Below, piece after piece: positions 141 through 24,946 of a DNA stretch of 33,268 nt. The translations under genes and the position numbers were made by a program. Under the pieces are notes generated by a model. That model saw only the letters and a list, made by a program, of their open reading frames with translations, did not search any database and had not been told where the DNA came from. The stretch lies in the sequence record SRR22947727_198. One strand, written 5' to 3'. Within the stretch, counting starts at the first letter, position 1. Each line of letters starts with the position of its first letter.

Positions 141-1313
141 ATGAATTTAAATAGTATTAACTTTAACTTTGATAAATTATTAAATAATTATGAGAGCGAG
201 TTAAACAACAAGCTTAGAGACTTCCAAAGTGAAAATTTAAAACTCTGGGTACCTGAAGAAAATTTACTTAAAAGCTTTTTTAATCTTGTAAGTGCTGCTA
301 ATATAGAAAGATCAAATGATTTTTCAATTGAAATTTCTAAAGAGCTTTTAAATAAAAAAAAATTAGAACCAGAAAAAATTATTGAATTATCTAAAAATTT
401 TTCAAAGATAAATTCCACCGTTAAACAAAAAAATATAATTTTTTTTTTTTCAAAAATTGATGGTAAAAAACTTAATAAATTATTAATTGAATTTTCAAGA
501 GAAAGAATTTTTAAAAATAAAAATAAAAATAAAATTTTAAAAATTGTAAAAAGAAAAGATTATTTAAATCATTCGGATATTAAAAAATTATATTATAAAA
601 AAACAAAGTCTTATTTGTTTATAAAAACAAAAAAAGAAATAATTGATAATAAGTATTATAATTATTGTGCTGAATATAAAAATTATGGATTAGCAATAAA
701 ATTAGATCCTCAAGAAAATTCAAAAATAATAGCAGTAAATTTTTATGGCACTAAGAATGTCCAGGAGATGTTTTTTTTAGACAGGTTTTGTGCAAAAATT
801 TTAAACATGCCATTTTTTGAGGTATTTGAACATGGAATTATTAAATTAGAAAAAGAATTGCGACCCAACAATATAACTAAAAAAATTAAAGGTATAATTT
901 CTCCAGTTGCAAGGTTTAAAATTTTTAATTTAATTCACCAGCTGATAAAAAAAATATGGTTTTTGCACTGCTCAAAACACGAGGTTCCTTTAAAAAATTT
1001 GTTTGATAGATATCCTTCTGATATTTGGGTTCAAATGCAATTGAATAAAAAAAATAAAATAATTGAAGAGATAATTAAAAAATTTGAAAATAAAATAAAG
1101 CTAAAAAATTTATTTTACTTTGATAGCATTAATAGTGATAATATTCGAATAACTATTGGTGTTAAACAAAAAATTGACCAAGCTAAATTAGCAAATTTAA
1201 TTTTAAGTTTTGAGAAATATATAAGACAACTTATTGATAAAAGAATTGAAGTGTTTTATAAAGAAACCCGAGATGAAAATAAACTTAGACAAAAAAATTT
1301 AATAAAGAAATAA
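141..1313 (+). CDS. Hypothetical protein with putative degenerate NifU-like architecture (IscU-like middle region, NifU C-terminal-like tail)
   Basis: 390-aa ORF with an ATG start, ending 3 bp before the radical SAM gene. LAIKLDPQENSKIIAVNFYG...FCAKILNMPFFEVFEH...LEKELR resembles the IscU/NifU-N pattern, and NIRITIGVK...SFEKYIRQLIDKRIEV resembles NifU-C. The canonical Cys ligands are absent. The CDS is secure; the function is tentative. Confidence 0.55.
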   Translation: MNLNSINFNFDKLLNNYESELNNKLRDFQSENLKLWVPEENLLKSFFNLVSAANIERSNDFSIEISKELLNKKKLEPEKIIELSKNFSKINSTVKQKNIIFFFSKIDGKKLNKLLIEFSRERIFKNKNKNKILKIVKRKDYLNHSDIKKLYYKKTKSYLFIKTKKEIIDNKYYNYCAEYKNYGLAIKLDPQENSKIIAVNFYGTKNVQEMFFLDRFCAKILNMPFFEVFEHGIIKLEKELRPNNITKKIKGIISPVARFKIFNLIHQLIKKIWFLHCSKHEVPLKNLFDRYPSDIWVQMQLNKKNKIIEEIIKKFENKIKLKNLFYFDSINSDNIRITIGVKQKIDQAKLANLILSFEKYIRQLIDKRIEVFYKETRDENKLRQKNLIKK

Positions 1314-1316
1314 AAT

Positions 1317-2453
1317 ATGTCCTCATTTGCTCAAGAACATCAAAAATTAATACTAGATGGCACAAAAATTGGTTGGCATCTTGAAAGGGTAAAAGCTTGG
1401 GAAAGAGGGGAGAGAATAGCGCCAATAACTATTGACATGGCACTTACTCGAACTTGTAATTATTCTTGTGGTTTTTGTTATGCAATGTTTCAAGAAAATT
1501 CAAGAAAGACTATCACAAAAGAAGTTATTTTTAATTTTCTAGAGGATTGTGCCGAAATAGGCGTAAAGGGAATAAGCTTTGTTTCAGACGGTGAGAGCAC
1601 TATTTCGCCAGTATTCATTGATGCATGCAAAAAGGGGCATGAACTTGGATTATCAATGGCTGTAGGAACAAATGCATTTGTTCTTACTGAAAATAAATTA
1701 GAAGAAGTTCTTCCTTATTTGACTTATCTGAGAGTTAATTTTTCTGCAGGTGAAAAAAAAAGATATGCTGAGATAATGGGATGTAAAGAATCTAGCTTTG
1801 ATCGTGTATGTGAAAATATTAAGTCAATGGTGAAGATAAAAAAAAGAGATAATTTAAAAGTCACCATAGGCATGCAAATGGTTTTAATGCCAAAAGATGC
1901 AGATCAAATCATGCCTTTAGCTCACTTAGGAAAAAAATTAAGACCTGATTATGCTATTATAAAACATTGTTCTGACAATGAAGATGGGCAATTGGGTATT
2001 GATTATAAAGAATATGAAAAGTTATTTTCTGAATTAAAAAAAGCAGAAGCACTATCAGATGAAACATATAAATGTGTCATCAAATGGTCTAAGTTAAAGG
2101 AAAATGAAGGTGGGGGTCAAATTAGATCTTACCAAAGATGCTTAGGTGCACCATTTCTTTTGCAATTGTCAGGTTCTGGTTTAGTGGCACCTTGCGGAAT
2201 GCTGTTTAATGAAAAATATAAAAAGTTTCATATTGGCAATATTGTAGAAAAAAGATTTAAAGATATTTGGAGCTCCGATCATTATTGGGAAGTCATGAAT
2301 TATCTTGCATCACCAGATTTTAATGCACAAAAAATGTGTGGAACTCTTTGTTTGCAGCACAAAGTTAATGAAGCTTTAGATGCACATTTGAAAGGAACAG
2401 CTGAAATTTCAAAACCTTCTAAAAAAGAACCCCAACACATTGATTTTATATAG
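1317..2453 (+). CDS. Radical SAM protein with C-terminal SPASM/Twitch domain
   Basis: CxxxCxxC motif (CNYSCGFC), SDGE in place of the GGE motif, and auxiliary-cluster pattern C-LGAPF...GLVAPC...IGN...F.DIW...CGTLC. Confidence 0.93.
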   Translation: MSSFAQEHQKLILDGTKIGWHLERVKAWERGERIAPITIDMALTRTCNYSCGFCYAMFQENSRKTITKEVIFNFLEDCAEIGVKGISFVSDGESTISPVFIDACKKGHELGLSMAVGTNAFVLTENKLEEVLPYLTYLRVNFSAGEKKRYAEIMGCKESSFDRVCENIKSMVKIKKRDNLKVTIGMQMVLMPKDADQIMPLAHLGKKLRPDYAIIKHCSDNEDGQLGIDYKEYEKLFSELKKAEALSDETYKCVIKWSKLKENEGGGQIRSYQRCLGAPFLLQLSGSGLVAPCGMLFNEKYKKFHIGNIVEKRFKDIWSSDHYWEVMNYLASPDFNAQKMCGTLCLQHKVNEALDAHLKGTAEISKPSKKEPQHIDFI

Positions 2454-2461
2454 ACTTTCAC

Positions 2462-3778
2462 ATGGGTCTTTTAAATTTTTTTAAAAAAAATTTTAACGAT
2501 ATAATTAGACTTGGTTCAAAAGAATTTCTTAGGAAATTAAAAATTTTTTTTAAAATATTTATAATTTCAATACCAATTTATCTAGCAAGTTTCTTTTTTG
2601 TTTTAGTTATAAGGATAATTAGCCCTGTTATTAAAATTAGGGTTCAAAGGATAATTTCACAAAGAATTGGACATTTTATTGCTGAGACAGAACTTCATTT
2701 ATGTGAAAAAAATTTAGAAAAAAAAAATAATAAAATTCAAATAGATTTTTTTTATTACGATTTATTTGTTTCAAATAAAAAAATTGATGAAATGATTAAA
2801 TCGGATCTGATTGTAGTTCCAAAAATAATTTTTAAACCTATTCATGATATAAATTTTTTAATAAACAAAATTTTAATTATTCTAGGAATAGAGAGGGATA
2901 TTAACAATTTCATAGTGCCACGACCGCAGTGTGCAGATAGAGATGTTAAAAATTTGTTAATAAAATGTTCACAGAAATTAAATTTAACTTCAGCTGATCA
3001 TATTGAGGGTGAAAAGTTTTTAAATAAACTTGGTATAATTAATAAAAAATTTGTATGTTTGGCTGTAAGAGATGATAATTATTTGAAAATTTCACAACCA
3101 AGAGGTGATTGGAAATATCATAATTTTAGAAATGGTAATATAAATGATTATTTATTAGCAGCCGAAGAACTGACAAATAGAGGCTATCATGTAATTAGAA
3201 TGGGCAAGTATGCAAAAGAAAAGTTAAAAACAAATAATCCTCTAATAATAGATTACTCATTTTCTAATTATAGAAATGATTTTTTAGATGTTTATCTTGG
3301 AGGAAATTGTAAATTTTGTATTTCAACAGGTTTTGGTTTTGATGCTATACCCTATGTGTTTAGAAAACCCATAGCTTATGTTTACACTCCTATAGGATAT
3401 CTTTTTTCATTTACGAAAAATTCAGTTGCTATATTTAAAAATTATTACAGTGAAAATAAAAAAAGATATCTTAACATTAATGAAATTTTTAATGAAGACT
3501 TAGCATTTGTATATAACGGTGAAATTTTAAAAAAAAAAAAAATCATACTAAAAGAAAATTCTCCTGAAGAGATAAAGGATTTAGCTATCGAAATGGATAA
3601 TAGACTAAATAATAATTTTAAATTGAGTATTAACGAAATAGAATTGCAAAATAAATTTTGGGCAAAATATAAATATTTAATTAAAGAAAAAAATGAAGAA
3701 CTCAAACATGGAAAAATTAATATGAAAATATGTAATAAATTTTTAAAAGATAATAAAAAAATTTTAATAGATGTCTAA
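2462..3778 (+). CDS. Putative glycosyltransferase, TIGR04372 family (copy 1)
   Basis: N-terminal hydrophobic helix, RIGHF, VCLAVRDDNYL, HNFRN, VIRMG, IIDY, DFLDVYL...CKFCISTGFG.D and ENSPEEI motifs, shared with the two paralogs at 14474 and 17724. Confidence 0.85.
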   Translation: MGLLNFFKKNFNDIIRLGSKEFLRKLKIFFKIFIISIPIYLASFFFVLVIRIISPVIKIRVQRIISQRIGHFIAETELHLCEKNLEKKNNKIQIDFFYYDLFVSNKKIDEMIKSDLIVVPKIIFKPIHDINFLINKILIILGIERDINNFIVPRPQCADRDVKNLLIKCSQKLNLTSADHIEGEKFLNKLGIINKKFVCLAVRDDNYLKISQPRGDWKYHNFRNGNINDYLLAAEELTNRGYHVIRMGKYAKEKLKTNNPLIIDYSFSNYRNDFLDVYLGGNCKFCISTGFGFDAIPYVFRKPIAYVYTPIGYLFSFTKNSVAIFKNYYSENKKRYLNINEIFNEDLAFVYNGEILKKKKIILKENSPEEIKDLAIEMDNRLNNNFKLSINEIELQNKFWAKYKYLIKEKNEELKHGKINMKICNKFLKDNKKILIDV

Positions 3779-4637
3779 AAAAAAAATATTAATAATTGGT
3801 CATTCTGGGGGACTTTCACAAGAAATAAATTATCAATTAAAAAATTTCTATAATTTAAAATTTTTAAGTAGACAACAAGTTGATGCTTTTAAAGCTTATA
3901 AAAAATATTTTAATGTAATAAAAAAGTTTAAACCAAGTTATGTTGTAAATACTGTAGCAGTTAATGGTATAAAATATTGTGAAGAAAATTCAGAAGAAGC
4001 AAACTTTGTTAATGGTTATTTGCCAAAAATAATTTACTCATATTCAAAAAAATTAGGATTTAAGTTTATACATTTTTCTTCAGACACAGTATTTAATGGA
4101 AAAGTTTTCAAAAAAAAATATCTAGATCAATCAAAACCTAAACCATTTACAGTACTTGGAAAATCTAAATACAAGTCTGAAGTTTTTTTATTAAATAAAA
4201 AAAATGTAATAATAATTAGATTACCGATGTTGTTTGGACCAAGACACAAGAAACATTTAGTTTATAAGCTTTTAATTAATTTAAAAAAAAATAAAAAGAC
4301 ATATGCTTCTACGGATGTTTATTCTACTCCAGTGTATACACCTAATTTAGTTTCATTTATTAATAAAAAAATATTTCAAAAAGATATTTTGTTTACAAAT
4401 AAATTAAAAAATAATTTAATTAATTTTTCATCGAATAAATATATATCAATATTTGGTCTGATGAAAATTTTTGCAAAATATTTAAAAAAAGAAAAATATC
4501 TGGTTTCTGTAAAAGATACATTTTTTGATGAATATTCAATAAAACCAAAATATTTAGGCTTGAAATCAAAAAATAAATATACTACACATGTGTCCTTAAA
4601 ATCATGTGTTAAAAATTTTTTAAACCAAATAAAATAA
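3771..4637 (+). CDS. RmlD-like (dTDP-4-dehydrorhamnose reductase family) extended SDR, catalytic Tyr apparently substituted
   Basis: ILIIGHSGGL Rossmann motif, CEEN.EEA..VN, IHFSSD.VF.G, IIIRLP.LFG and STPVY. The YGxSK motif reads LGKSK. Confidence 0.8.
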   Translation: MSKKKILIIGHSGGLSQEINYQLKNFYNLKFLSRQQVDAFKAYKKYFNVIKKFKPSYVVNTVAVNGIKYCEENSEEANFVNGYLPKIIYSYSKKLGFKFIHFSSDTVFNGKVFKKKYLDQSKPKPFTVLGKSKYKSEVFLLNKKNVIIIRLPMLFGPRHKKHLVYKLLINLKKNKKTYASTDVYSTPVYTPNLVSFINKKIFQKDILFTNKLKNNLINFSSNKYISIFGLMKIFAKYLKKEKYLVSVKDTFFDEYSIKPKYLGLKSKNKYTTHVSLKSCVKNFLNQIK

Positions 4638-5431
4638 TGAATATAGATGAAAAAAAAAAAATTTTAATTGAAGATGGAGTTGTTTTAACTAGAGATTTTT
4701 TTTTAGATGATGAAATTTCAAAGTTAAGAGAAGAATATGATAATTTAGATTCAAAATTAACAAATAGAGAAATATATAAAAATAAACCAATTATAGTATT
4801 CTGGAAGCACGTACAGGGAGAACAAAAGAGAATTGCAACTTTTGATGAAATTCCCTCTTTGTGGAATTTAATATTAAAAAAAATAGTTCCATTTGTTAAA
4901 GAAATTTCTGGTAAAGATCAAATACAATTGTTGGAAACAATTATTTTTAATAAACCTTATGAAAAAAGTAATACTTTACATTGGCACCAAGATGTAGCTT
5001 ATTTTCCATTGAAGCCAAATAATCAAGTAGCAGTTTGGTTTCCTCTAGAGCAAGTTAACAAACAAAGAGGAGCTTTAAACTATGCACTTAAATCACATTT
5101 AGAAGGTATAAAAGGTTCGACTGATTTACACACTAGAAAACCTTTTGATAATGAAGATAGAGAGCTTATACCAGATGACCCTTCCAAAGCTGGCTATGAA
5201 GTAAAATGTATGGAGATGTCTAATAAAGACATACTTTTGCATAATGGTTATACTTGGCATTATTCAGGGCCTAATAGTGAAGTAGGATATACAAGAAGAG
5301 GAATATCAGTACGATTTATTATCGAAAAAGCAGCATTTGACCCTAGGCCCGGGCAAGGAGCAGCATTTACAAAACAAATTACTTTGGAAGCCGGAGATGT
5401 TTTTAAAGGTGACCCATTTCCATATCTTTAA
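4637..5431 (+). CDS. Phytanoyl-CoA dioxygenase (PhyH) family 2OG-Fe(II) oxygenase
   Basis: IFNKP, LHWHQDVAYF (HxD), VAVWFPL, distal His in WHYSGPN, and RR 2OG-binding Arg. TAATG overlap with the upstream gene. Confidence 0.9.
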   Translation: MNIDEKKKILIEDGVVLTRDFFLDDEISKLREEYDNLDSKLTNREIYKNKPIIVFWKHVQGEQKRIATFDEIPSLWNLILKKIVPFVKEISGKDQIQLLETIIFNKPYEKSNTLHWHQDVAYFPLKPNNQVAVWFPLEQVNKQRGALNYALKSHLEGIKGSTDLHTRKPFDNEDRELIPDDPSKAGYEVKCMEMSNKDILLHNGYTWHYSGPNSEVGYTRRGISVRFIIEKAAFDPRPGQGAAFTKQITLEAGDVFKGDPFPYL

Positions 5432-5449
5432 ATTTTAAAAATAATTTTA

Positions 5450-5878
5450 ATGAAAAAATCTGTTGGAGCAATAATTTACTTCAAAGGTAAGTATTTGCTT
5501 CAAAAAAGAGACAATAAAAAAAATATTTTTTTCCCAGATTTTTGGGGAGTATTTGGTGGATCAGTTGATAAAAATGAAACAATTAAAAAAGCAGTTTTAA
5601 GAGAATTAAAAGAAGAAATAACTTTAGACATGAATATAGAAAAAAAAATTTTAACTAGCTTCTTTAAGTCTTATCATTTTACGAGTCAAAGAAAGAGAGT
5701 GTATTACGAATGTAGTTTTAAGACAAAAAAATTTAAGATAAAATTAAATGAAGGAGTGAGCTTTAAGTTTTTTAAAATAAATGAAGTAAAAAAACTAAAA
5801 ATAATCCCTTGGGACCTGCAAGCCTTGTTATATTTTGATTTGTTATATATAAAAAAAAAAAAACTTTTGCCACAATAA
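5450..5878 (+). CDS. Nudix hydrolase
   Basis: Nudix box G-x5-E-x7-RELKEE (GSVDKNETIKKAVLRELKEE), with YLLQKRD...W.VFGG upstream. Confidence 0.9.
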   Translation: MKKSVGAIIYFKGKYLLQKRDNKKNIFFPDFWGVFGGSVDKNETIKKAVLRELKEEITLDMNIEKKILTSFFKSYHFTSQRKRVYYECSFKTKKFKIKLNEGVSFKFFKINEVKKLKIIPWDLQALLYFDLLYIKKKKLLPQ

Positions 5879-5901
5879 ATATCAAGATATAAGGAAGTAA
5901 T

Positions 5902-6681
5902 ATGAATGTTGCTAATTTTTCAAAAAATGGGTTTATTGTTGTTAAACAAGCAATAAGCAAACTAATTTTAAAAGAACTTCAAAAAAACGCTTTTTATATT
6001 TTAAATAAACATTCACGAGTTGACTATAATTCATTTGTTAAGATAACAAAAAAAATTAATGATAATAATAAATTTAAAGTAGCCAAAAAAATACATGAAT
6101 ATTTTTTATACAAAAAAAATATTGAGAAAATTTTGCAAGAAAAGAAACTCTTAAACTGCTTGGTGAGTATTTTGGGATCAGATTTATGTTATGAGAATAA
6201 TTCTAATACAATTATTCTTAACACACCATTAAAAAATAATTTAAAAAAAAATTATATGTTTAAAGAATGGCATCAAGAAATTTGGTCTGGTGCTGATACA
6301 AATACTCTTCAGATATGGATACCACTATTTCAAAAAGATAACTCTGGAGGTCAGCTAGAGATAATAAAAGATTCGCATAGATGGGGTCATATACCTCATC
6401 ATAATAGAGAGCCGATTGATTTACCAAAAAGTTATAAAACTATTAAGACAAATTTAAAATTGGGTGATGCTTTAATTTTTTCAACAGTCTTGGTTCATCG
6501 AACGGTCTTATCTCAATTTCCTAGGTTAAGCTTACCTTTTCATGTAAGAAACTTTAAATATAAAAACATTTCATATGAGAACAACAAGAGTTGGACAATA
6601 TTTTCTCACTCCGAACTGACAAAAATTGAAAAATTTTTAGGTAATCACTATCTAAGTCCTTATAGATTAAAAAATATATAA
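5902..6681 (+). CDS. PhyH-like 2OG-Fe(II) oxygenase
   Basis: WHQEIWSG (HxE), IWIPL, GDALIF...LVHRT and RLSL motifs. AAGGA SD-like sequence at 5891. Confidence 0.85.
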   Translation: MNVANFSKNGFIVVKQAISKLILKELQKNAFYILNKHSRVDYNSFVKITKKINDNNKFKVAKKIHEYFLYKKNIEKILQEKKLLNCLVSILGSDLCYENNSNTIILNTPLKNNLKKNYMFKEWHQEIWSGADTNTLQIWIPLFQKDNSGGQLEIIKDSHRWGHIPHHNREPIDLPKSYKTIKTNLKLGDALIFSTVLVHRTVLSQFPRLSLPFHVRNFKYKNISYENNKSWTIFSHSELTKIEKFLGNHYLSPYRLKNI

Positions 6682-6719
6682 TTTATTTAAATTAATCTAA
6701 TATCTGTTATTAAATATTT

Positions 6720-7532
6720 ATGTTTCAAGATAAAAATGAAAAAAATTTATCAGAAAAATTTATAAAAGAAGGTTTTATAGTTGTAGATGTTTTAAATAAA
6801 AAATCTTTAGAATTTATAAAGAATAAAATAATTAAACTATCAGTTTTATTTTTAAAAAAAAATAAAATAAAACTATATAAAGATACCCAAAGAGATTTTT
6901 TTGATCAAATTCATAAATCGTTACCAAAAAATAAAATTAATGATTTTAGATTAAGTATTTTAAAAAATGTATTGCAAGATCAAAATATAAGAAAACATTA
7001 TTATCTGTTGGCAAAAGATTATCTTGATATTATTGTTGGTAATGAGCTTGCAATGCAACGAAGGATTAACTTAAGTGTTCAAACACCAAACGATCCAACT
7101 TCTATATTAAATATTCATACAGATGTTTGGTCTGGAGATTCACCATTTGAAGTAGTGCTGTGGATACCTCTTGTAGATTGTTTTAAGACGAAAAGGATGT
7201 TTATTGTCCCACCAAAAGATAATGAAAAAGTTTTTAGAAAAAAACTTTCTTATTTTGGAATTAAATCTACATCAGATCTTTTTAATTTTTATAAGAAAAA
7301 GATCAAATTTATAGACATTAAATATGGCCAACTATTAATTTTTAATCAAAATCTATTGCATGGCGGTGTAATTAATAAAGAAAAAACTACTAGATGGTCT
7401 TTAAATTGTAGATTTAAAAATATCTTTACTCCTTATGATGAAAAGAAATTGGGGGAGTTTTTTGAACCAATAACACTTAAACCAGCTTCTAGAGTTGGAA
7501 TTAAATATTATAACTTGTTACAAAATGACTAA
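6720..7532 (+). CDS. Sporadic carbohydrate cluster 2OG-Fe(II) oxygenase (TIGR04324-like)
   Basis: GNELAMQRRINLSVQ.P.D, IHTDVWSGDSPFEVVLWIPL, NLLHG and TRWSLNCRFK motifs. Lies directly next to a TIGR04323-like gene. Confidence 0.85.
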   Translation: MFQDKNEKNLSEKFIKEGFIVVDVLNKKSLEFIKNKIIKLSVLFLKKNKIKLYKDTQRDFFDQIHKSLPKNKINDFRLSILKNVLQDQNIRKHYYLLAKDYLDIIVGNELAMQRRINLSVQTPNDPTSILNIHTDVWSGDSPFEVVLWIPLVDCFKTKRMFIVPPKDNEKVFRKKLSYFGIKSTSDLFNFYKKKIKFIDIKYGQLLIFNQNLLHGGVINKEKTTRWSLNCRFKNIFTPYDEKKLGEFFEPITLKPASRVGIKYYNLLQND

Positions 7533-8612: not shown

Positions 8613-8617
8613 TTATT

Positions 8618-10123: not shown

Positions 10124-10143
10124 TCAACTAATGATAGATTCTT

Positions 10144-10172: not shown

Positions 10173-10218
10173 AAAATTTCAAATTCAAAAAAAAAATTAA
10201 TTTTTTTAAATTATAATT

Positions 10219-11319: not shown

Positions 11320-11324
11320 GTTAT

Positions 11325-12425
11325 ATGCGCATACCTTATGTTGATTTAAAAAAACAGTATAATTTCGAAAAAAAAAAGTTATTAAAAATAATTGACAATG
11401 TTTTGTCACAAGGCACCTATGTGGGTGGAAATGAAATTTTAAAGCTAGAGACACAGCTTGCAAAAATATGTAATTCAAAATATGCAGTGACCTTTAATAG
11501 TGGGACAGATGCGTTAACAATGGCATTAATTTTGTGTGGTGTAAAAAAGGGAGATGAGGTAATAACTCCTCCAAACTCTTTTGTAGCATCTACAGCAACT
11601 ATTGTACACATTGGAGCAAAACCTGTATTTGTTGATGTGGGTGATGATCAAAATATTGATCCTGATTTATTAGAAAAGAAAATTACAAAAAAAACTAAAG
11701 CTATAATGCCTGTTCACCTCACAGGTAGAGTTTGTAAAATGGATAAAATATTAAGGATTGCAAGTAAATTTAATTTAAAAGTTATTGAAGACTCAGCTCA
11801 ATCAATTGGTTCAAAATTTAAAAATAAATCTGCGGGATCATTTGGAGATATTGGTTGTTTTTCTACTCATCCTCTTAAAAATTTAAATGCAATGGGTGAT
11901 GGTGGCTTTTTTGTAACAAATAATAAAAGTTATTATCTTAAAGCTTTAAGTTTGAGATCTCATGGAATTTATAAAAGAAATATTATTAAAAATTTTGGTT
12001 ATGTTTCTAGAATGGATAATTTACAAGCTGCAATTTTGAATTTTAGGCTTAATAATTTAGATAATGTAATACAAAAAAGAAGAAACAATGCTAGCATATA
12101 TTTAAAACATCTTGACAAAAAAAATTATTTTTTTCCAAAAGAAAAATATGAAGAATTTAATACATACCATACTTTTGTAATCCAAGTTAAAAATAGAAAA
12201 AAATTAATAAAATTCTTAGAACAAAAAAAAATATCCACAGCAATTCATTATCCTATACCTATACATCTTCAACCTGCTGCAAAAAAACTAGGTTATAAAA
12301 GGGGAGATTTTCCAGTAACAGAAAAACAATCTTCCGAAATTATTACTTTACCTGTTAATCAATTTTTATCATCAAAGGAAATAATATATATATCTAACGC
12401 AATTAATAGTTTTTATGATAAATAA
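11325..12425 (+). CDS. DegT/DnrJ/EryC1/StrS family NDP-sugar aminotransferase (copy 2)
   Basis: NSGTDA, GDEVIT, PVHLTG, IEDSAQ, FSTHPLKNLNAMGDGG and IHYPIP. Confidence 0.95.
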   Translation: MRIPYVDLKKQYNFEKKKLLKIIDNVLSQGTYVGGNEILKLETQLAKICNSKYAVTFNSGTDALTMALILCGVKKGDEVITPPNSFVASTATIVHIGAKPVFVDVGDDQNIDPDLLEKKITKKTKAIMPVHLTGRVCKMDKILRIASKFNLKVIEDSAQSIGSKFKNKSAGSFGDIGCFSTHPLKNLNAMGDGGFFVTNNKSYYLKALSLRSHGIYKRNIIKNFGYVSRMDNLQAAILNFRLNNLDNVIQKRRNNASIYLKHLDKKNYFFPKEKYEEFNTYHTFVIQVKNRKKLIKFLEQKKISTAIHYPIPIHLQPAAKKLGYKRGDFPVTEKQSSEIITLPVNQFLSSKEIIYISNAINSFYDK

Positions 12426-12434
12426 TAAATATTT

Positions 12435-13415
12435 ATGGATATAGATAAAACTATTAAAAAAAAAACTTTTTTTAAGTTATTAAGAATACGAAGAATTGAA
12501 GAGTCGATTTCAAAAGAGTATGCCAAAGGAGAAATGCGATGTCCTGTACATTTGTCTATAGGTCAAGAATCAATCCCTGTTGCTATATGTGAAAACCTTA
12601 ATAGGAATGATGAAATTGTGACTGCTCATAGATCACATGCACACTATCTTGCAAAAGGTGGTGATTTAAAAAAAATGATTGCAGAAATTCATGGAAAAGT
12701 AACAGGATGTGCTAAAGGACTAGGTGGTTCGATGCACTTAATTGATTTGAAAAAAAATATAAAAGCTGCTGTACCAATAGTAGGAAGCACTATTCCTATT
12801 GGTGTTGGAGTTGCTTGGGCAAATAGATTAAAAAAAAATAATAATATAGTTGTAATTTTTTTTGGCGATGGGGCTTCTGAAGAAGGTGTATTTTTAGAAA
12901 GTTTAGATTTTGCGAGCTTGCATTCTCTAAACATACTTTTTGTATGTGAAAACAATAAATTTTCTGTTTACTCCAATATATCTAAGCGTCAAAACAAAAA
13001 TAGAAAAATTTTTAAAATAGCAAATTCTTTAGGTATTAAATCAAAAATGTTTAAAGATCATGATTTAATAAATTTATATAGTAAATCTAAAAAGATTATA
13101 GATAATATTAGAAAATATAATCAACCATTTTTAATTGAAATAGATACTTACAGATTATTAGAACATTGTGGACCTAATTATGATGACAATCTTAATTATC
13201 GAAATAAAAATGAGGTAAATTATTGGGATAGAAATTGTCAAATTAAAAAATATGAAAAAAAATTTCTTAAAGAAAAAATAATTACAGAAGAAGAGATAAG
13301 AGTAAAAGAAGACATTATAAACAAAGAGATTATGAATGCCTATACTTTTTCAAGAAAAAGCAAGTATCCCTCAAAAAATATGATGTTTAAATATACATTT
13401 AAAAAGGAGTTGTAA
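12435..13415 (+). CDS. TPP-dependent dehydrogenase E1 component alpha subunit-like
   Basis: HLSIGQE, HRSHAHYLAKG, GGSMH and the TPP-binding motif GDGA...ENN. Confidence 0.93.
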   Translation: MDIDKTIKKKTFFKLLRIRRIEESISKEYAKGEMRCPVHLSIGQESIPVAICENLNRNDEIVTAHRSHAHYLAKGGDLKKMIAEIHGKVTGCAKGLGGSMHLIDLKKNIKAAVPIVGSTIPIGVGVAWANRLKKNNNIVVIFFGDGASEEGVFLESLDFASLHSLNILFVCENNKFSVYSNISKRQNKNRKIFKIANSLGIKSKMFKDHDLINLYSKSKKIIDNIRKYNQPFLIEIDTYRLLEHCGPNYDDNLNYRNKNEVNYWDRNCQIKKYEKKFLKEKIITEEEIRVKEDIINKEIMNAYTFSRKSKYPSKNMMFKYTFKKEL

Positions 13416-13416
13416 T

Positions 13417-14469
13417 TTGAGAACTTTATATTTTAATGAGAGTATTAGAGAAACATTGGAACAATCAATTTCAAAAGATAAATCGGTTATAGTAATGGGT
13501 CTTGGTGTTGATGATCCTAAAGGAGTTTTTGGCACAACCTTAAATATTCATAAAAAGTATAAAAAAAATATTTATGATTTACCAACTGCAGAAAATTCTT
13601 TTACTGGAATAGCTTTAGGAATGTCGATATCTGGTTATAAGCCAGTTATTGTTCATCAAAGAGTTGAATTTTCTTTATTGTCAATTGAACAAATATTTAA
13701 TCAAATTTCTAAATGGTTTTTTATGAGTGGAGGTAAGGTAAGTGTTCCAATTGTCATAAGATTAATTATTGGTAAAGGATGGGGGCAGGGACCACAACAT
13801 TCTCAATCATTAGAGGCAATTTTTTCGCACATACCTGGTTTAAAAGTTGTTTGTCCCTCAAATGCATATGATGCTAAAGGCTTATTATATTCAAGCATTC
13901 AGGATCCTGATCCTGTAATTTTTTTTGAACATCGATGGTTACACTCGACCAAAGATTATGTACCCAAAAAACTATTTAAAGTTCCATTAAAAAAATGTAA
14001 AAAAATTAATAATGGGAGAGATTTAACTATCGTAAGTTTTTCTTATCCAGTTTTAGAGTGTATTAAAGCGGTAAAATTTTTAAAAGAAAATAATATAAAT
14101 TGTGATTTATTAGATTTAAGATCTTTAAAACCAATTGATTATCGTTCAATACTAAAATCAGTTAAAAAAACTAAAAAAGTTCTTATTGTCGATAATGGAT
14201 GGGTAACTAATGGTATTAGTGCTGAAATATTAGCCCATTTATCTGAAAATTTAGATTTAAATAAATCAAGGTATATTTTTAAAAGAATTGGTTTAAGTGA
14301 TGCTCCGATTGCAAGTTCTGTTTCGATTGCTAAGCACAGTTATCCTGAAGAACCTGTTATAATTAAAGAAGTATTAAAAATTTTAAATATCAAAAAAAAA
14401 ATAAAATTAATTCCAAAACTTAGAAAAAACCCAGATCAACCAGATATTAATTTTAAAGGACCTTTTTAA
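13417..14469 (+). CDS. TPP-dependent dehydrogenase E1 component beta subunit-like (transketolase Pyr/C-terminal domains)
   Basis: DLPTAENSFTG, GPQHSQSLE, IPGLKVV, DPVIFFEH and LDLRSLKP. TTG start preceded by AAGGAG (13404-13409) at 7-nt spacing. Confidence 0.93.
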   Translation: MRTLYFNESIRETLEQSISKDKSVIVMGLGVDDPKGVFGTTLNIHKKYKKNIYDLPTAENSFTGIALGMSISGYKPVIVHQRVEFSLLSIEQIFNQISKWFFMSGGKVSVPIVIRLIIGKGWGQGPQHSQSLEAIFSHIPGLKVVCPSNAYDAKGLLYSSIQDPDPVIFFEHRWLHSTKDYVPKKLFKVPLKKCKKINNGRDLTIVSFSYPVLECIKAVKFLKENNINCDLLDLRSLKPIDYRSILKSVKKTKKVLIVDNGWVTNGISAEILAHLSENLDLNKSRYIFKRIGLSDAPIASSVSIAKHSYPEEPVIIKEVLKILNIKKKIKLIPKLRKNPDQPDINFKGPF

Positions 14470-14473
14470 TTAA

Positions 14474-15688
14474 ATGTTTATTTTGAAAGTTTTTAAAATT
14501 ATCTATCGCTATTTTTTAATTAATCTTTTTTTTTCTCCAATAATAATTTTTTTAATTTTTTTTTCTCTTTTTAAAAAAATAAGATTTGGCAACATAAGAA
14601 CTGAGAGAGTAGGTCATTTATTAGCAAATACAGAATTATACTTATTAGAAAAAAGGCATAATAAAATTAATAATTTTTTAGATCTATTGTATGGATCAAG
14701 ATTTATATCCAACATCCAGGCTTATAAAATGATTAAAAAAAGAACATTTATATTTCCTTCTTTTATTGGACATATACATTCTTTTTTTAAACTATTAAAT
14801 AAAAATAAATATGAAATTTCTGTCTTACAAGGTGGTGGAGACAGAGATAAGTTAGGCTTTTTTAAATATAATAGTGAAATTGATTTTTCAGATAGAGAGT
14901 ACAATTTTGGAAAAGAACTATTATTACAAAAATTTAATTGTGATATCGATAAAGATAAAATTGTTTTTTTAGCCGTTAGAGACTCTGCATATCTTAAAAA
15001 AGAATTTCCAAATAATGATTGGAGTTATTTTAATTATAGAGATTGGAATATTAATAATTTTGTAATTGGATGTGAATATCTAAGTAGTGTGGGATATAAA
15101 GTTTTTAGGGTTGGAAAATTTACAAATCAAAAAATTATTTCTAATAAAAGAAATATTTATGATTATGCTAATTCAATTTATCGTTCAGATTTTATGGACC
15201 TTTTTTTAGCTAAAGTTTGTAAATTCGCAGTTTCAACTGGTCTAGGTATTGATAATGCTGCTTTAATATTTAGAAAACCGATAGCAATGATTCACTTACC
15301 TTTCGAATTTAGCTATTTTCATAGCTCAAACCTTGTAATGACTAAACATCATTATTCAGTAAAAAAAAAAAAAAATCTTTCAATTTCAGAGATATTTGAG
15401 GAAGGTAATAAAATAAATTTTAAATACACATCATCAGGTTATAAAAAAATTGGCATAACTTTAATTGAAAATAGTCCTGAGGAAATCAGAGATTTAATGA
15501 AAGAAATGCACTTAAAGGTAAATAATAAAACATTTCTTTTAGCACCCGAAGAAAAAGAAATAGTAAGTGAATTTTGGAACATTTTCAATTTTAATCTAAA
15601 AAAATATGGTTTTGAAAATTATCATGGGAATATCTCTGGTAATATTTCTGTATCTTTTTTAAAAAAAAACCCATATTTCTTAAGATAA
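14474..15688 (+). CDS. Putative glycosyltransferase, TIGR04372 family (copy 2)
   Basis: RVGHL, AVRDSAYL, NYRD, VFRVG, YDYA, RSDFMDLFL...CKFAVSTG.G.D and ENSPEEI motifs, plus an N-terminal TM helix. Confidence 0.85.
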   Translation: MFILKVFKIIYRYFLINLFFSPIIIFLIFFSLFKKIRFGNIRTERVGHLLANTELYLLEKRHNKINNFLDLLYGSRFISNIQAYKMIKKRTFIFPSFIGHIHSFFKLLNKNKYEISVLQGGGDRDKLGFFKYNSEIDFSDREYNFGKELLLQKFNCDIDKDKIVFLAVRDSAYLKKEFPNNDWSYFNYRDWNINNFVIGCEYLSSVGYKVFRVGKFTNQKIISNKRNIYDYANSIYRSDFMDLFLAKVCKFAVSTGLGIDNAALIFRKPIAMIHLPFEFSYFHSSNLVMTKHHYSVKKKKNLSISEIFEEGNKINFKYTSSGYKKIGITLIENSPEEIRDLMKEMHLKVNNKTFLLAPEEKEIVSEFWNIFNFNLKKYGFENYHGNISGNISVSFLKKNPYFLR

Positions 15689-15694
15689 AGTAAA

Positions 15695-16666
15695 ATGAAA
15701 ATTTTAATAACAGGTGGAGCGGGGTTTATTGGCAGTCATTTAGTTGAAAGGTTGTCAAAAAAAAATGAAATTATCGTACTTGATAATTTTTCAACAGGAA
15801 GAAAAAAAAACTTAGAAAATATAAAAGGAATAAAAATTATTGAATGCGATATTTCTAAAAAAGGTAATTGGGAAAAAAATTTTAAAAATGTGAAATGTGT
15901 ATTTCATTTAGCAGCTCTTGCTGACGTAGTTCCTAGTATTAACTTCCCAAATGACTATTACAAGTCTAACGTAACCGGCACCTTTAATGTGATGCAAGCG
16001 TGTAGAAAATATAAAATTAAGAAATTAATATATTCTGCATCATCATCTTGTTATGGGATTCCTAAAAATTATCCTACTAAAGAAACGGAAAAAATAGATA
16101 CACACTATCCTTATGCTTTAACTAAATATTTAGGAGAGCAAATTTGTTTACATTGGGGAAAATTATATTCTATAAATGTAATTTCCTTAAGATTATTTAA
16201 TGTTTATGGAACTAGATCAAGAACATCAGGAACTTATGGAGCAATGTTTGGAGTTTTTCTGGCACAAAAGTTAGCAAATAAACCATATACAGTTATAGGT
16301 GATGGCAAGCAAACAAGAGATTTTACATATGTTTCAGATGTGGTATCAGCAATGGTTGCTGCAAGTAAATCAAATATTAAAAATGAAATTTTCAACATAG
16401 GTAGCGGCAAAACTATTTCGGTAAATTCTATTGTAAAAATTTTAGGTGGAAAAAAAATTTTTATTCCTAAAAGACCAGGAGAGCCAGATTGTACTTTTGC
16501 AGATACAAAAAAAACAAAAAAACTTTTAGGATGGAAATCTAAAGTTGATATAAATAGTGGAATTAAAAAAATTTTGAATGAAATAGATTATTGGAAAGAA
16601 GCACCGGTGTGGACACCAAAAAAAATTAAAGGTGCTACAAAAGATTGGTTTAAATATATTAAATAG
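15695..16666 (+). CDS. NAD-dependent epimerase/dehydratase (NDP-sugar extended SDR)
   Basis: GGAGFIG, FHLAALAD, SASSSCYG, YALTK (YxxxK), RLFNVYG and GDGKQTRDF. Confidence 0.95.
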   Translation: MKILITGGAGFIGSHLVERLSKKNEIIVLDNFSTGRKKNLENIKGIKIIECDISKKGNWEKNFKNVKCVFHLAALADVVPSINFPNDYYKSNVTGTFNVMQACRKYKIKKLIYSASSSCYGIPKNYPTKETEKIDTHYPYALTKYLGEQICLHWGKLYSINVISLRLFNVYGTRSRTSGTYGAMFGVFLAQKLANKPYTVIGDGKQTRDFTYVSDVVSAMVAASKSNIKNEIFNIGSGKTISVNSIVKILGGKKIFIPKRPGEPDCTFADTKKTKKLLGWKSKVDINSGIKKILNEIDYWKEAPVWTPKKIKGATKDWFKYIK

Positions 16667-16738
16667 ATAATTTTGATATTTAAAATAACTTAATTTAAAT
16701 GTTATTGAATAAAAAAAAAAAATGAATAGGATAAATAT

Positions 16739-17716
16739 ATGAAAATTTTAGTTACTGGTGGCGGGGGATATGTAGGATGTGAATTAGTAAATAATCTACT
16801 ACATAATAATCATAAAGTTACATCGCTTGATCTTTATCTATATGGTGAAGATGTGATGCCAGTACATAAAAATTTTAAATTAATAAAAGGCGATATAAGA
16901 AATCAGAAATTATTAAGCGAAGCTTTCAAAGACCAAGATATTATAATTCATTTAGCATGCATATCTAATGATCCGAGTTTTGAGCTAAACCCGACTTTAG
17001 GGAAATCAATTAATCTAGATGCATTTGAACCAATGGTTAAAATTGCTAGAGACTCTAAGGTCAAACGATTTATTTATGCTTCATCTTCAAGTGTTTATGG
17101 GGTTAAACAAGAACAAAATGTACACGAAGATATGAGCTTAGAACCATTAACAGATTATTCGATATTTAAAGCTAATTGTGAAGAAATACTCTTAAGATAT
17201 AAATCTAATGAATTTGAAGTTGTAACAATTCGTCCAGCAACAGTTTGTGGTTATTCTAAAAGACAGAGGCTAGATTTAGTTGTAAATATACTTACTAATT
17301 TGGCTTATAATAAAGGTAAAATTACAGTTTTTGGAGGAAATCAGTTAAGACCTAACATTCATATTAAAGATATGATTGAAATTTATAATAAAGTAATAAA
17401 TGCTGAAAGCAAATTGGTTAATGGTCAAATTTTTAATGCCGGATATCAAAATCTTAAAGTAATTGAAATTGCAGAATTAGTTAAAAAAATTATAGGAAGT
17501 CATGTTGAAATTGAGATTAAGGAGTCAAACGATAATAGATCGTACCATATTTCTAGTGAAAAAATTAAAAATGTTTTGGATTTTTCATCCTCATTTACAG
17601 TGGAAGATTCCATTATTGATCTAAAAAAATGCTTTGACCAAAAACTATTAATAGACCCTTTAAATAATATTAAATATTACAATATAAAACTGATGAATAA
17701 CATACAATTAAATTAA
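16739..17716 (+). CDS. NAD-dependent epimerase/dehydratase (NDP-sugar extended SDR)
   Basis: GGGGYVG, HLACISNDPS, ASSSSVYG, YSIFK (YxxxK) and RPATVCG. AGGA SD-like sequence at 16728. Confidence 0.93.
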   Translation: MKILVTGGGGYVGCELVNNLLHNNHKVTSLDLYLYGEDVMPVHKNFKLIKGDIRNQKLLSEAFKDQDIIIHLACISNDPSFELNPTLGKSINLDAFEPMVKIARDSKVKRFIYASSSSVYGVKQEQNVHEDMSLEPLTDYSIFKANCEEILLRYKSNEFEVVTIRPATVCGYSKRQRLDLVVNILTNLAYNKGKITVFGGNQLRPNIHIKDMIEIYNKVINAESKLVNGQIFNAGYQNLKVIEIAELVKKIIGSHVEIEIKESNDNRSYHISSEKIKNVLDFSSSFTVEDSIIDLKKCFDQKLLIDPLNNIKYYNIKLMNNIQLN

Positions 17717-17723
17717 TATTGTA

Positions 17724-18962
17724 ATGTTTATATTATTAAGAAAATTTATAAGTTTTACAAAAAATTTGTTCTCTAAGCTTTTAATAGTATTTTTTTCTCC
17801 TTTGAGTTTATTAATAGTAATCATTAGCCCTTTTTATTTAATAAGATTGGGATTTATAAGCAGCTCTAGAGTTGGTACCTTTCTTTATGTTTCAGAAATT
17901 TTTTTAGCAGAAAAACTTGATAGAATTAATGAACGAAATAAAATTGGAATAGATATTTTTCATTTTGATAAAATTATATCTAATGAATTAATTGCTAAAA
18001 AAATAGAAGATGAATTGTTAATATTAAACAGAAAATTAATTAATCCTATCTATAAATTTTTTGTTTTTTTTTCATCATATTTTAAATTTTTAAAAAAACA
18101 TATAATTAAAAATCATAACTATTTTAGAGATTCAAAATATTTGATTGAAAAATACTCACCAATAATAAAACTTACCCAAGAAGAAATTAAATTAGCAAAA
18201 AAAATACTTGAGGAAAATAATATTTATCCAAATAAAATTGCAGTTTTCATGATTAGAGATAGTGCCTATCTAGATAAATTTTTACCAACAGGTAAATGGA
18301 TTAATGAGAACTTAAGAGATGATAATATAAATAGTTATTTAAAATCTATGAAATTTTTAACTAGCAAAAATTACACAGTTTTTAGAATGGGTAAATTTAT
18401 GAAAAATAAACTAGAAACTAATGATCCTAAGATTATAGATTATGCCTTTAAAAACTTTAGATCTGAGCTTTTAGATTTTTATTTAATGTCAAGTTGTGAT
18501 ATTTGCGTTACTACAGATACAGGAATAGATTGTATTTCAGATTTACATCACAGACCAATGGCAATGATCCAATACCCATTAAGTTGGGTAAAATCTCAAA
18601 GACCAAATGTTTTATTTATGCCAAAGAAAATTTATAATTTCAAAATTAAAAATTTTTTATCTTTACTTGAAATATTTGATTATAGGATAATAGGAGAGAG
18701 AAACTTTCAAAACTTATACAAAAAAAATTTAAAGGTATTGCCAAGTGATGAAGAAGAAATACTTAATCTTGTTAGCGAGTTATATTTTAGACTTGAGGGA
18801 GTTTTTTTAGAAAATAAAAAAGATTTTGAAAATCAAAAAAAATTTTGGTCAATTTTTTTTGATAGATTAAAAAATGATACAGAATTTGTTAATCATGATG
18901 GATCAAATAAGTCTAAAATATCATCAACATTTTTAAGATTAAATGAGTATTTTTTAAATTAA
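17724..18962 (+). CDS. Putative glycosyltransferase, TIGR04372 family (copy 3)
   Basis: RVGTF, IRDSAYL, NLRD, VFRMG, IIDYA, RSELLDFYL...C...TTDTG.D and SDEEEI motifs, plus an N-terminal TM helix. Confidence 0.82.
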   Translation: MFILLRKFISFTKNLFSKLLIVFFSPLSLLIVIISPFYLIRLGFISSSRVGTFLYVSEIFLAEKLDRINERNKIGIDIFHFDKIISNELIAKKIEDELLILNRKLINPIYKFFVFFSSYFKFLKKHIIKNHNYFRDSKYLIEKYSPIIKLTQEEIKLAKKILEENNIYPNKIAVFMIRDSAYLDKFLPTGKWINENLRDDNINSYLKSMKFLTSKNYTVFRMGKFMKNKLETNDPKIIDYAFKNFRSELLDFYLMSSCDICVTTDTGIDCISDLHHRPMAMIQYPLSWVKSQRPNVLFMPKKIYNFKIKNFLSLLEIFDYRIIGERNFQNLYKKNLKVLPSDEEEILNLVSELYFRLEGVFLENKKDFENQKKFWSIFFDRLKNDTEFVNHDGSNKSKISSTFLRLNEYFLN

Positions 18963-18975
18963 AAAAACTTAAATT

Positions 18976-19338
18976 ATGAAAAAAAAAATTTTTAAAAAAA
19001 TAATATGTTTTGATATTGATGGGGTGATTTGTGTTACAAGAAAAAATCAATACGAAAATTCTAAACCTAAAAAAAAAATAATAAGCTTAATAAATAAGCT
19101 ATATGACAATAATTTTTATATAAAATTATTTACAGCTAGATATATGGGAAGAAATCAAGAGAATTGTTTTAAAGCTAAAAAACAAGGCTTAAAACTTACA
19201 AAAAACCAATTGAATAATTGGAAAGTTAAATATCATGAATTGATAATGTGTAAACCTTCCTATGATTTATTTATAGATGATAAAAATCTAGGATTTAAAC
19301 AAGATTGGTACAAGGATATTAAAAAAAAATTATTATAA
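18976..19338 (+). CDS. Small capless HAD-superfamily phosphatase (capsule-biosynthesis phosphatase-like)
   Basis: FDIDG motif I, FTAR motif II and KP.YDLFIDDK motifs III/IV in 120 aa. Confidence 0.85.
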   Translation: MKKKIFKKIICFDIDGVICVTRKNQYENSKPKKKIISLINKLYDNNFYIKLFTARYMGRNQENCFKAKKQGLKLTKNQLNNWKVKYHELIMCKPSYDLFIDDKNLGFKQDWYKDIKKKLL

Positions 19339-24945: not shown

Positions 24946-24946
24946 A

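Follow-up and report, generated by a model that had tools for sequence, protein, structure and literature searches.

A probable surface-sugar gene block combines a widespread core with two tailoring modules

Gene content and mosaic organization of the block

The 33,268-nucleotide stretch of DNA from sequence record SRR22947727_198, called the window below, contains a closely packed gene block at positions 141-19338 that we have analyzed computationally as a candidate surface-sugar pathway. Within it a widespread core pathway is joined to two tailoring modules that are usually found apart, and the product is probably a C-branched, heptose-derived nucleoside diphosphate (NDP) sugar. All 34 open reading frames (ORFs) of the window lie on the + strand, with a GC fraction of 0.18-0.30. 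Twenty intact ORFs fall within the block, with spacings of -8 to +95 bp (Table 1). The nearest named homologs come from Ca. Pelagibacter, with 80% identity for the TIGR04324 protein and 78% for the radical S-adenosylmethionine (SAM) enzyme.

A first-pass annotation had assigned to the block a radical SAM/Twitch enzyme, three PhyH-type 2-oxoglutarate (2OG)-Fe(II) oxygenases, an orphan E1 pair, a methyltransferase, two DegT aminotransferases, three short-chain dehydrogenase/reductases (SDRs), a kinase-nucleotidyltransferase fusion, a HAD phosphatase, a Nudix enzyme and three glycosyltransferases (GTs). Pfam and NCBIfam assignments agree with this inventory, but it left out the first ORF of the block (ORF1) and the TIGR04323 gene. 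The three putative GTs are present as TIGR04372 proteins, but the GT label is the NCBIfam name alone. The co-oriented block is real, but it continues beyond its assigned end into an ABC exporter and a legionaminic-type cluster. Three of its families, TIGR04324, TIGR04323 and TIGR04372 (three copies), are already catalogued without function. An Rfam search of the window gave zero matches, and promoter-like sites occur there at chance level (142, compared with 143 in shuffles).

Related loci were assembled around the two tailoring modules. Among 356 pattern matches to TIGR04324 in species-representative genomes 339 were relatives, and the best 80 were analyzed; for the radical SAM enzyme the relatives numbered 324 among 421 metagenome matches, and the 80 best, many of them short, were again analyzed. 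Three viral loci and 14 wider cuts, the latter picked for holding a match, bring the total to 177. The hosts of the TIGR04324 loci include Alpha-, Beta- and Gammaproteobacteria, Leptospira, cyanobacteria, Actinomycetota, Bacteroidota and others.

Rather than forming one conserved unit, the block is a mosaic. It comprises a core (two SDRs, the HldE-like fusion, the DegT pair and a thiamine enzyme), a module of the radical SAM enzyme with its partner ORF1, and a module of TIGR04324, TIGR04323 and the methyltransferase. By profile search, the 80 TIGR04324 loci hold TIGR04323 (78), the methyltransferase (72), an APH-type kinase (60), the HldE-like fusion (55), SDR2 (53), SDR1 (47), GmhA (36) and DegT1 (20), while the radical SAM family of the window and ORF1 were each found in 0/80. 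The 80 radical SAM loci hold DegT2 (48), DegT1 (34), SDR2 (27), the HldE-like fusion (24) and TIGR04324 (4). DegT2 is present in 55 of the 57 loci holding DegT1. The core and each module thus recur in other genomes across phyla, but the two tailoring modules are found together in only 4 of the 177 loci. In the nearest whole-block relative (L088) identity falls from 90% for the radical SAM enzyme to 37% for E1 alpha, and parts of the block therefore have different histories.

A single run on the Azospirillum oryzae plasmid NZ_CP054615 contains an SDR, SDR1, the HldE-like fusion, an SIS protein, SDR2, E1 alpha, E1 beta, DegT1, DegT2, an ORF1 homolog, the radical SAM enzyme (72% identity) and a Nudix gene. 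A. oryzae KACC 14407 thus has a compact E1-type version, located at 207512-219867 of NZ_CP054615, with an ORF1 homolog and the radical SAM enzyme at 72%. Leptospira interrogans has counterparts of the methyltransferase, SDR, HldE-like and DegT genes. The radical SAM enzyme was found in 11 of 301 sampled family genomes. The TIGR04324 protein had no match in phage or plasmid records, and the SDR2 matches in phage records were of only 32-33% identity.

Some contigs of viral type carry parts of the system. A transketolase-type TIGR04324 cassette occurs on three putatively viral IMG/VR contigs (L081-L083). Three others (L194-L196) carry the radical SAM enzyme, with DegT and ORF1 in none of them; L195 and L196 each contain an HldE-type gene as well as miniature genes for E1 alpha and beta (170-200 aa), with GmhA in addition in L196, and L194 has merely a weak E1 beta-like match.

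Table 1. Features of the gene block and the adjoining exporter gene.
Feature	Position	Strand	Remarks
ORF1, unnamed radical SAM partner	141..1313	+	390 aa; IscU-like and Nfu-like folds; no Pfam/NCBIfam family
Radical SAM enzyme, SPASM/Twitch-type auxiliary cluster	1317..2453	+	PF04055 and PF13186; Cys 47/51/54 and 275/293/341/345
TIGR04372 putative glycosyltransferase A	2462..3778	+	209 bits, cutoff 45
RmlD-like reductase	3771..4637	+	PF04321 E 1e-28; Leu at catalytic Tyr position
PhyH-type 2OG-Fe(II) oxygenase 1 (PhyH1)	4637..5431	+	PF05721 E 2e-21; H117, D119, H208, R220
Nudix hydrolase	5450..5878	+	PF00293; Nudix box intact
PhyH-type oxygenase 2 (PhyH2), H-x-E...H	5902..6681	+	PF05721 E 6e-11; H124/E126/H200
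TIGR04324 'sporadic carbohydrate cluster' 2OG-Fe(II) oxygenase	6720..7532	+	300 bits, cutoff 150
TIGR04323 (LIC12192 family) small partner protein	7525..7953	+	115 bits, cutoff 55
Class I SAM methyltransferase, TIGR04324 module	7950..8612	+	family search
Nucleotidyltransferase-PfkB kinase fusion, HldE-like, domains reversed	8618..10123	+	PF01467 and PF00294; HLGH, FSST, GAGD
DegT aminotransferase 1 (DegT1)	10219..11319	+	PF01041; catalytic Lys in SLHPLK
DegT aminotransferase 2 (DegT2)	11325..12425	+	PF01041; catalytic Lys present
Orphan E1 alpha, thiamine diphosphate binding	12435..13415	+	PF00676; GDG motif
Orphan E1 beta	13417..14469	+	PF02779 and PF02780
TIGR04372 putative glycosyltransferase B	14474..15688	+	165 bits
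SDR1, GalE-like epimerase/oxidoreductase of core	15695..16666	+	YALTK motif
SDR2, candidate NDP-heptose C4 dehydrogenase	16739..17716	+	best PDB match 6vo6
TIGR04372 putative glycosyltransferase C	17724..18962	+	151 bits
Small HAD phosphatase, EcbF-like, DIDG	18976..19338	+	TIGR01689 E 1.2e-10, below cutoff
ABC exporter (HepA/MsbA/PglK-like), probable flippase	19352..21127	+	13 bp past HAD gene; beyond the block as first annotated

The thiamine enzyme slot and the base sugar

There are 62 loci that contain SDR1, the HldE-like fusion and SDR2 together. The accompanying thiamine diphosphate (ThDP) enzyme is a split transketolase in 40 of these, a protein like YerE or acetohydroxyacid synthase (AHAS) in 15, and an E1 pair in 6. 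The one locus with none (L123) is a cut contig in which the start of an AHAS-like gene is visible. Two ThDP types are present in the same locus in 2 of the 177 loci, and the radical SAM enzyme is accompanied by a ThDP enzyme in 63 of its 80 metagenome loci. The best PDB matches of the AHAS-like slot protein, ahead of true AHAS, are 5ahk (E 7e-88) and 8rph (E 2e-81), which we take to be the YerE-like enzymes PpYerE and JanthE. In the window the E1 pair has its GDG motif and there is no E2; E2-like motifs number 0 in all 13 E1 loci examined, compared with 2 in a catabolic control (L201).

In the accessible text of PMC12247030, ketone acceptors are known only for the decarboxylase (YerE-like), alphaKADH2 (E1) and transketolase superfamilies of ThDP enzymes. 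The three families that replace one another in the slot are these same three, and this supports a C-branched NDP-sugar; we regard the match as the strongest argument for branching. Enzymes of the E1 type add two-carbon branches that are later possibly reduced, oxidized or transaminated (PMC12247030), and precedents for two-carbon branching include AviB1/B2, Pau11/12 and YerE (PMC4753412). The two-carbon branch suggested in the first-pass annotation is thus supported, with the E1 pair filling a slot held elsewhere by YerE-like or split-transketolase enzymes.

The slot could alternatively serve chain extension. By a logic like that of the lincosamides, the ThDP enzyme would lengthen an aldose phosphate to an octulose or nonulose phosphate, to be activated by an SIS isomerase, kinase, HAD phosphatase and nucleotidyltransferase. 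This would be ordinary transketolase chemistry, and the HldE-like and SIS proteins are divergent. Moreover an APH-type kinase is present in 60 of 74 transketolase-type loci and 0 of 74 E1/YerE-type loci, so the transketolase-type loci differ in supply. But the three ThDP types share one core and the window has E1, and by established chemistry a pyruvate-using E1 or YerE-like enzyme would generate a 1-deoxyketose, which an SIS isomerase cannot convert to an aldose. We consider chain extension unlikely.

Another orphan E1 pair lies in L200 (Solidesulfovibrio magneticus pDMC1, 22514-35407), together with a kinase, a nucleotidyltransferase, a GDP-fucose-synthase-like SDR, DegT, radical SAM and Nudix genes, GT2s and a lipid-carrier glycosyltransferase.

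The sugar that would carry the branch is probably derived from a heptose. HldE is the best NCBIfam family for the kinase-nucleotidyltransferase fusion (E 6e-52; 177 bits against a cutoff of 521), with the order of the domains reversed, and the reversed fusion may still work like HldE. GmhA is found in 30 of the 62 core loci. SDR2 has its best PDB match in 6vo6 (E 2.7e-37), which we take to be Cj1427, and the next match (E 4.9e-25) is twelve orders of magnitude weaker. Cj1427 is a GDP-heptose C4 dehydrogenase (PMC10680097). SDR2 is 60% identical to its Leptospira copy, and DegT1 is 73% identical to that of Leptospira interrogans. The best PDB match of DegT1 is 3uwc (E 9e-109), presumably a Coxiella protein. 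The amination and the higher-carbon origin proposed at first pass, the latter probably from a heptose, are supported by the DegT pair, the best family of the fusion, the co-occurrence of GmhA and the match of SDR2 to 6vo6.

The radical SAM enzyme, its partner and the oxygenases

The radical SAM enzyme has a CxxxCxxC motif and four C-terminal auxiliary cysteines. The latter are kept in 87 of 93 radical SAM sequences, and the 6 that have lost them form one clade. Its best single-sequence PDB match is DesII (E 4.5e-5), over the SAM barrel only, and the profile finds SkfB (2e-19), DesII (2e-15), MoaA, BtrN (2e-12) and BlsE (6e-12). These similarities are superfamily-level and lie in the generic range. 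HygY and AviX12 are not named among the 60 PDB matches shown for the profile, and the search did not place the enzyme with these two, as had been suggested at first pass.

The action of DesII on a 4-amino sugar is a deamination that yields a 3-keto sugar, and the enzyme can also act as a dehydrogenase (PMC11434129). With either activity the ThDP enzyme would be provided with a ketone. In a desosamine- or aldgarose-type route, which would be a special case of the explanation that we prefer, a DegT enzyme would aminate C4, the radical SAM enzyme would deaminate the product to a 3-keto-4-deoxy sugar in the manner of DesII, E1 would branch C3 and the second DegT enzyme would re-aminate. This would accord with the rank of DesII among the PDB matches (first by single sequence, second by profile), with its 3-keto product, with the branching of aldgamycin at C3 by an E1-type enzyme (PMC12247030), and with the presence of DegT genes in 20 of 29 long radical SAM loci. 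However, these DegT genes are not found in the other 9 long loci nor in any of the 3 viral loci, the DegT pair occurs without a radical SAM enzyme of the window type in 16 of 61 long TIGR04324 loci, and the DesII match is limited to the barrel. Because of the loci that lack DegT, oxidation or epimerization by the radical SAM enzyme is at least as likely as deamination, and we think the full DesII-type sequence of reactions rather unlikely.

ORF1 falls within no Pfam or NCBIfam family and only within unnamed Atlas clusters; its relatives number 667 representatives at E<=0.001. In its structure model (pLDDT 91) residues 148-287 match IscU (Z 10.7, root-mean-square deviation (rmsd) 3.7, 119 aligned, Foldseek E 8e-4) and residues 303-376 match CnfU, which is Nfu-like (Z 8.9, rmsd 2.3, 72 aligned). 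A small alpha/beta domain at the N terminus compares with TusA/SirA (Z 5.6, rmsd 2.6, 71 aligned), tied with the gasdermin and Alba folds. The canonical cluster ligands are absent, both at the IscU positions and in the Nfu CxxC (a CxxC occurs in 3 of 132 sequences), and the conserved residues include one other cysteine (80%) and His231 (98%).

ORF1 is present in 67 of the 80 radical SAM loci, and each of the remaining 13 has less than 1.7 kb on one side. Modeled as a complex, ORF1 and the radical SAM enzyme score 0.72, compared with 0.26 for the best control; 51 of 78 solved complexes attained the mark applied, as did 2 of 108 mismatched pairs. Agreement between runs covers at least 48% of the contacts, and the partner pLDDT is at least 71. 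The modeled interface is formed by residues 17-55 of ORF1 and by 44-68 and 95-130 of the radical SAM enzyme, and it lies on the best conserved residues of ORF1 (mean 0.55 compared with 0.33). The model suggests that ORF1 binds the radical SAM enzyme as an accessory subunit.

All six radical SAM enzymes that have lost the four auxiliary cysteines keep the C-terminal piece of ORF1 only. We regard this as co-loss and claim nothing more. The modeled interface has not diverged significantly faster in that clade (13 of 34 compared with 177 of 326 consensus positions unchanged, p 0.10). The subclade comprises L084, L085, L174-L176 and L178, with 47-50% identity and an Nfu-like ORF1 fragment of 107-116 aa alongside. 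Elsewhere ORF1 is split into an N-terminal gene and an IscU+Nfu gene (L172:489-1453 and L173:513-1455), and two pieces are also found in L089, L093 and L137. A weak ORF1 match in L086 (E 2.7e-4) was unconfirmed on recheck and was dropped.

The 2OG-Fe(II) oxygenases consist of two Pfam PhyH proteins and the TIGR04324 protein, with H-x-D...H in two of them and H-x-E...H in PhyH2. The 2-His-1-carboxylate triads (H117/D119/H208, H124/E126/H200 and H133/D135/H214) are common to the whole PhyH-type superfamily; in the TIGR04324 oxygenase H133, D135, H214 and R225 are invariant in 26 sequences. PhyH1 has five PDB matches, namely human PhyH (5e-8), MysH (2.1e-5, two entries), EvdO2 (2.3e-5) and one other. 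AviO1, EvdO1 and HygX are not among these matches at E<=0.1; solved structures exist for AviO1, EvdO1, EvdO2 and HygX (PMC8234114). The TIGR04324 profile found nothing significant in the PDB. PhyH1 is present in 3 of 13 E1-type loci and 0 of 135 transketolase- or YerE-type loci, and PhyH2 has relatives, of merely 23-27% identity, in 7 of the 80 radical SAM loci. Both are rare add-ons across loci.

A relationship of the block to orthosomycin and hygromycin B biosynthesis had been proposed at first pass, with possible orthoester or cyclic acetal bonds. The oxygenases would then cyclize the branched sugar as AviO, EvdO and HygX do. There are indeed three 2OG-Fe enzymes within one block, EvdO2 is one of the five matches of PhyH1, and the restriction of PhyH1 to E1-type loci echoes the pairing of AviO2 with AviB1/B2 (PMC8234114). 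Against this, EvdO2 ranks fourth, after human PhyH and MysH, so PhyH1 is no closer to it than to these; hydroxylation is by established knowledge the default reaction of the family; and, as noted, TIGR04324 has no significant structural match and the two PhyH proteins are sporadic. In this comparison, which covered PhyH1 and TIGR04324, neither oxygenase groups more closely with AviO/EvdO/HygX than with other PhyH members. The specific relationship is not borne out, the orthosomycin framing is a loose analogy, and orthoester bonds find no support and are in our view very unlikely.

The TIGR04323 gene overlaps TIGR04324 by 8 bp, and the two adjacent genes both score above their cutoffs. A resolvase-like assignment of TIGR04323 was rejected as unproven, the window copy being the only one of 25 members to match, and there is no similarity between TIGR04323 and the N-terminal domain of ORF1. 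A divergent paralogous TIGR04324/TIGR04323 pair lies inside YerE-type radical SAM loci (L117, L133, L134, L154, L166, L170), often accompanied by a further PhyH enzyme and an FkbM methyltransferase. In the 80 TIGR04324 loci (L001-L080) two radical SAM families distant from that of the window (20-29% identity) are present, in 7 and 13 loci, and C-methyltransferases and a WbuC cupin are frequent extras. Near the A. oryzae plasmid cassette there are lasso-peptide-like genes (PqqD, B2, asparagine synthetase) and a 2OG oxygenase (L180:22530-27597).

Surface context, proposed pathway and relation to known systems

The first-pass assignment of the block to an uncharacterized surface-sugar pathway is supported by the ABC exporter and legionaminic-type genes that follow it, which fit an O-chain island. 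Pelagibacterales keep such genes in O-chain clusters, and it has been argued that swapping of whole clusters is too slow for the arms race with phage (PMC11898729). Heptose, transketolase and dioxygenase are not mentioned in the accessible text of that paper on Pelagibacterales islands. The O-antigen region of Coxiella contains an HldE-like gene with two SDRs and GmhA at its flanks, the HldE-like gene being needed for full-length lipopolysaccharide (LPS) and virenose, as far as described in the accessible parts of PMC13252051, PMC5843353, PMC13552124 and PMC3539893. This supports a surface role, but not a branched-heptose product.

Transfer of the sugar is less firmly assigned. A profile of 33 TIGR04372 sequences finds heptosyltransferase II (1psw) in the PDB at E 2.2 only, the Atlas gives a GT9 cluster lead of 0.85 (sub-0.9), and no Pfam GT family matches any of the 33 members; the GT role consequently rests on the NCBIfam label. 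The ABC exporter has tblastn matches in 18 of 83 TIGR04324 loci, some of them partial.

The product might be destined for decoration of a protein or for export as a small molecule and not for an O-chain, or some of the genes might be decaying passengers. Elsewhere the cassette lies beside GT2/membrane-protein systems or on phage contigs, TIGR04372 is a transferase by label only, and the RmlD-like reductase looks inactive. It has Leu129 (codon CTT) in place of the catalytic Tyr (LGKSK), where its two nearest relatives (L088 and L202) keep the Tyr (YGKTK and YGKSK). But the 20 frames are all intact, with little space between them, they adjoin a nonulosonic acid cluster and an ABC flippase, and Pelagibacterales hold such genes in O-chain clusters (PMC11898729). 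These alternatives seem to us highly doubtful.

Beyond the exporter, 21229-29393 is a legionaminic-acid-type cluster with LegC (at cutoff), a formyltransferase, two ORFs without assignment (one GNAT/FemAB-like), NeuC, NeuD, NeuB, a CBS-nucleotidyltransferase and a cytidylyltransferase. The formyltransferase suggests an N-formylated nonulosonic acid. The remainder, 29393-33268 (GC about 0.18-0.19), encodes an LA_1612-family O-antigen protein (TIGR04441, above cutoff), a 376-aa ORF without assignment, a dehydratase-like protein of the Polysacc_synt_2 family and an ORF that is cut.

The explanation we prefer is that the block belongs to an O-chain island in a marine, Pelagibacter-like bacterium and makes a C-branched, heptose-derived sugar. 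We infer its chemical steps from the observed gene content, motifs, co-occurrence, ThDP interchange and ORF1 folds. The HldE-like kinase, the HAD phosphatase and the nucleotidyltransferase would convert a heptose-type sugar phosphate into an NDP-sugar, with GmhA supplied from outside the window. SDR2, the radical SAM enzyme or both would create a ring ketone, the latter with ORF1 as its accessory subunit according to the modeled binding. The orphan E1, as an alpha2beta2 assembly, would decarboxylate pyruvate and add the two-carbon unit to the ketone, giving a C-branched tertiary alcohol. The DegT pair would aminate a ring or branch ketone, the 2OG oxygenases would hydroxylate and the methyltransferase would methylate. 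Finally the TIGR04372 proteins would transfer the sugar, and the ABC exporter would flip the unit for addition to the O-chain. The modules would act on one sugar or two. We place the probability of this explanation as a whole, including the ORF1 subunit and the O-chain island, at about 0.6.

A number of observations weigh against it. At the base of the pathway, the fusion scores below every family cutoff and carries FSST at the position of the STT motif of heptose nucleotidyltransferases, GmhA is absent from the window, and the RmlD-like copy lacks its catalytic Tyr. The orphan E1 pair is 43% identical to one in a Streptomyces region of polyketide synthase, nonribosomal peptide synthetase and butyrolactone genes that contains no sugar genes (L198, Streptomyces griseofuscus pSGRIFU1), and an 18-row E1 tree, which had no AviB1/Pau11/AlmD-type reference sequences, gave no supported split between the E1 of sugar loci and catabolic E1. 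Sugar branching by a split transketolase is described in the accessible text of PMC12247030 as proposed and never shown in vitro, and the confinement of the APH-type kinase to transketolase-type loci means that the ThDP variants are not chemically identical. With regard to ORF1, the complex mark was also passed by 7 of 44 blind neighboring genes, and five distant radical SAM relatives have all four auxiliary cysteines with no ORF1 nearby. ORF1 is thus specific to one radical SAM subfamily and not a general need of the auxiliary cluster; the idea that it is required for that cluster was dropped, since the cysteine losers are moreover a single clade. The loci are phylogenetically clustered, so their counts are not independent. 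The virenose of Coxiella is a C-methyl hexose and not a two-carbon-branched heptose (from the parts accessible of the Coxiella papers cited above).

A broader proposal is distinctly tentative. The loci might represent one pathway family for C-branched heptose-derived surface amino sugars in SAR11, Leptospira, Azospirillum and others, branching with any of three unrelated ThDP superfamilies. In one branch the radical SAM enzyme would have two subunits, the second being a ligand-free, repurposed TusA-/IscU-/Nfu-like chain docked by the SAM cluster loop. In the window both modules would act on the same sugar, possibly with ring closure onto the branch.

The cassette is common, with TIGR04324 relatives in at least 339 stretches of species-representative genomes, pathogenic Leptospira included. 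The three-way exchange of ThDP superfamilies in one slot offers a direct test of the unproven branching of keto sugars by split transketolase, and the slot enzymes are potential new ketone-accepting carboligases. If true, a NifU-like subunit that is poor in cysteine and dedicated to its enzyme would be a new kind of radical SAM accessory. As a culturable soil bacterium carries the compact E1 version, the pathway question is testable. A description of the cassette was not found in the full-text literature searched, a search outside which most subscription papers lie, and these loci could already be included in a survey made in silico of YerE-like clusters, numbering more than 200, to which PMC12247030 refers. 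We conclude that this is a real pathway, uncharacterized in the searched literature, and a variant of known ThDP sugar branching.

Comparison with known systems places the block as follows. It belongs with the sporadic carbohydrate cluster, passing all three cutoffs (TIGR04324, TIGR04323 and TIGR04372). The usual cluster has a split transketolase (68/80) and an APH kinase, where the window has an E1 pair (2/80), found beside TIGR04324 also in L028, L078 and L088; and the window adds the radical SAM module, which is in 0/80 of those loci. ORF1 has IscU-like and Nfu-like folds in the order of NifU, but unlike NifU, IscU and NfuA it lacks the cluster cysteines and is dedicated to one radical SAM subfamily. 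With cbu0674-cbu0678 onward of Coxiella burnetii the system shares GmhA, two SDRs and the HldE-like fusion as gene types; that region, as far as the accessible sources describe it, was probably acquired from Alphaproteobacteria and is linked to virenose. The window shares superfamilies (PhyH-type, radical SAM, E1 pair, heptose-type activation) with AviO1-3, EvdO1/2, HygX, AviX12 and HygY, but no specific sequence relationship to the orthosomycin and hygromycin B systems; its product would not be an antibiotic oligosaccharide, and there is no orthoester evidence. A further parallel lies with the branching enzymes YerE (yersiniose A), AviB1/B2 (eurekanate), Pau11/12 (paulomycose) and the E1-type enzymes of aldgamycin and kibdelomycin, the window likewise having an orphan E1 pair, without E2, amid keto-sugar-forming enzymes. 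The split transketolase of miharamycin and amipurimycin is a third branching type, and among relatives of the cassette each of the three superfamilies is found in the one slot. The known ThDP branching acceptors are deoxy-keto hexoses and pentoses, and the E1-type enzymes come from secondary metabolism, according to the accessible text of PMC12247030. The window differs from these in its surface glycan context, its heptose-type activation and the absence of a recognizable 4,6-dehydratase.

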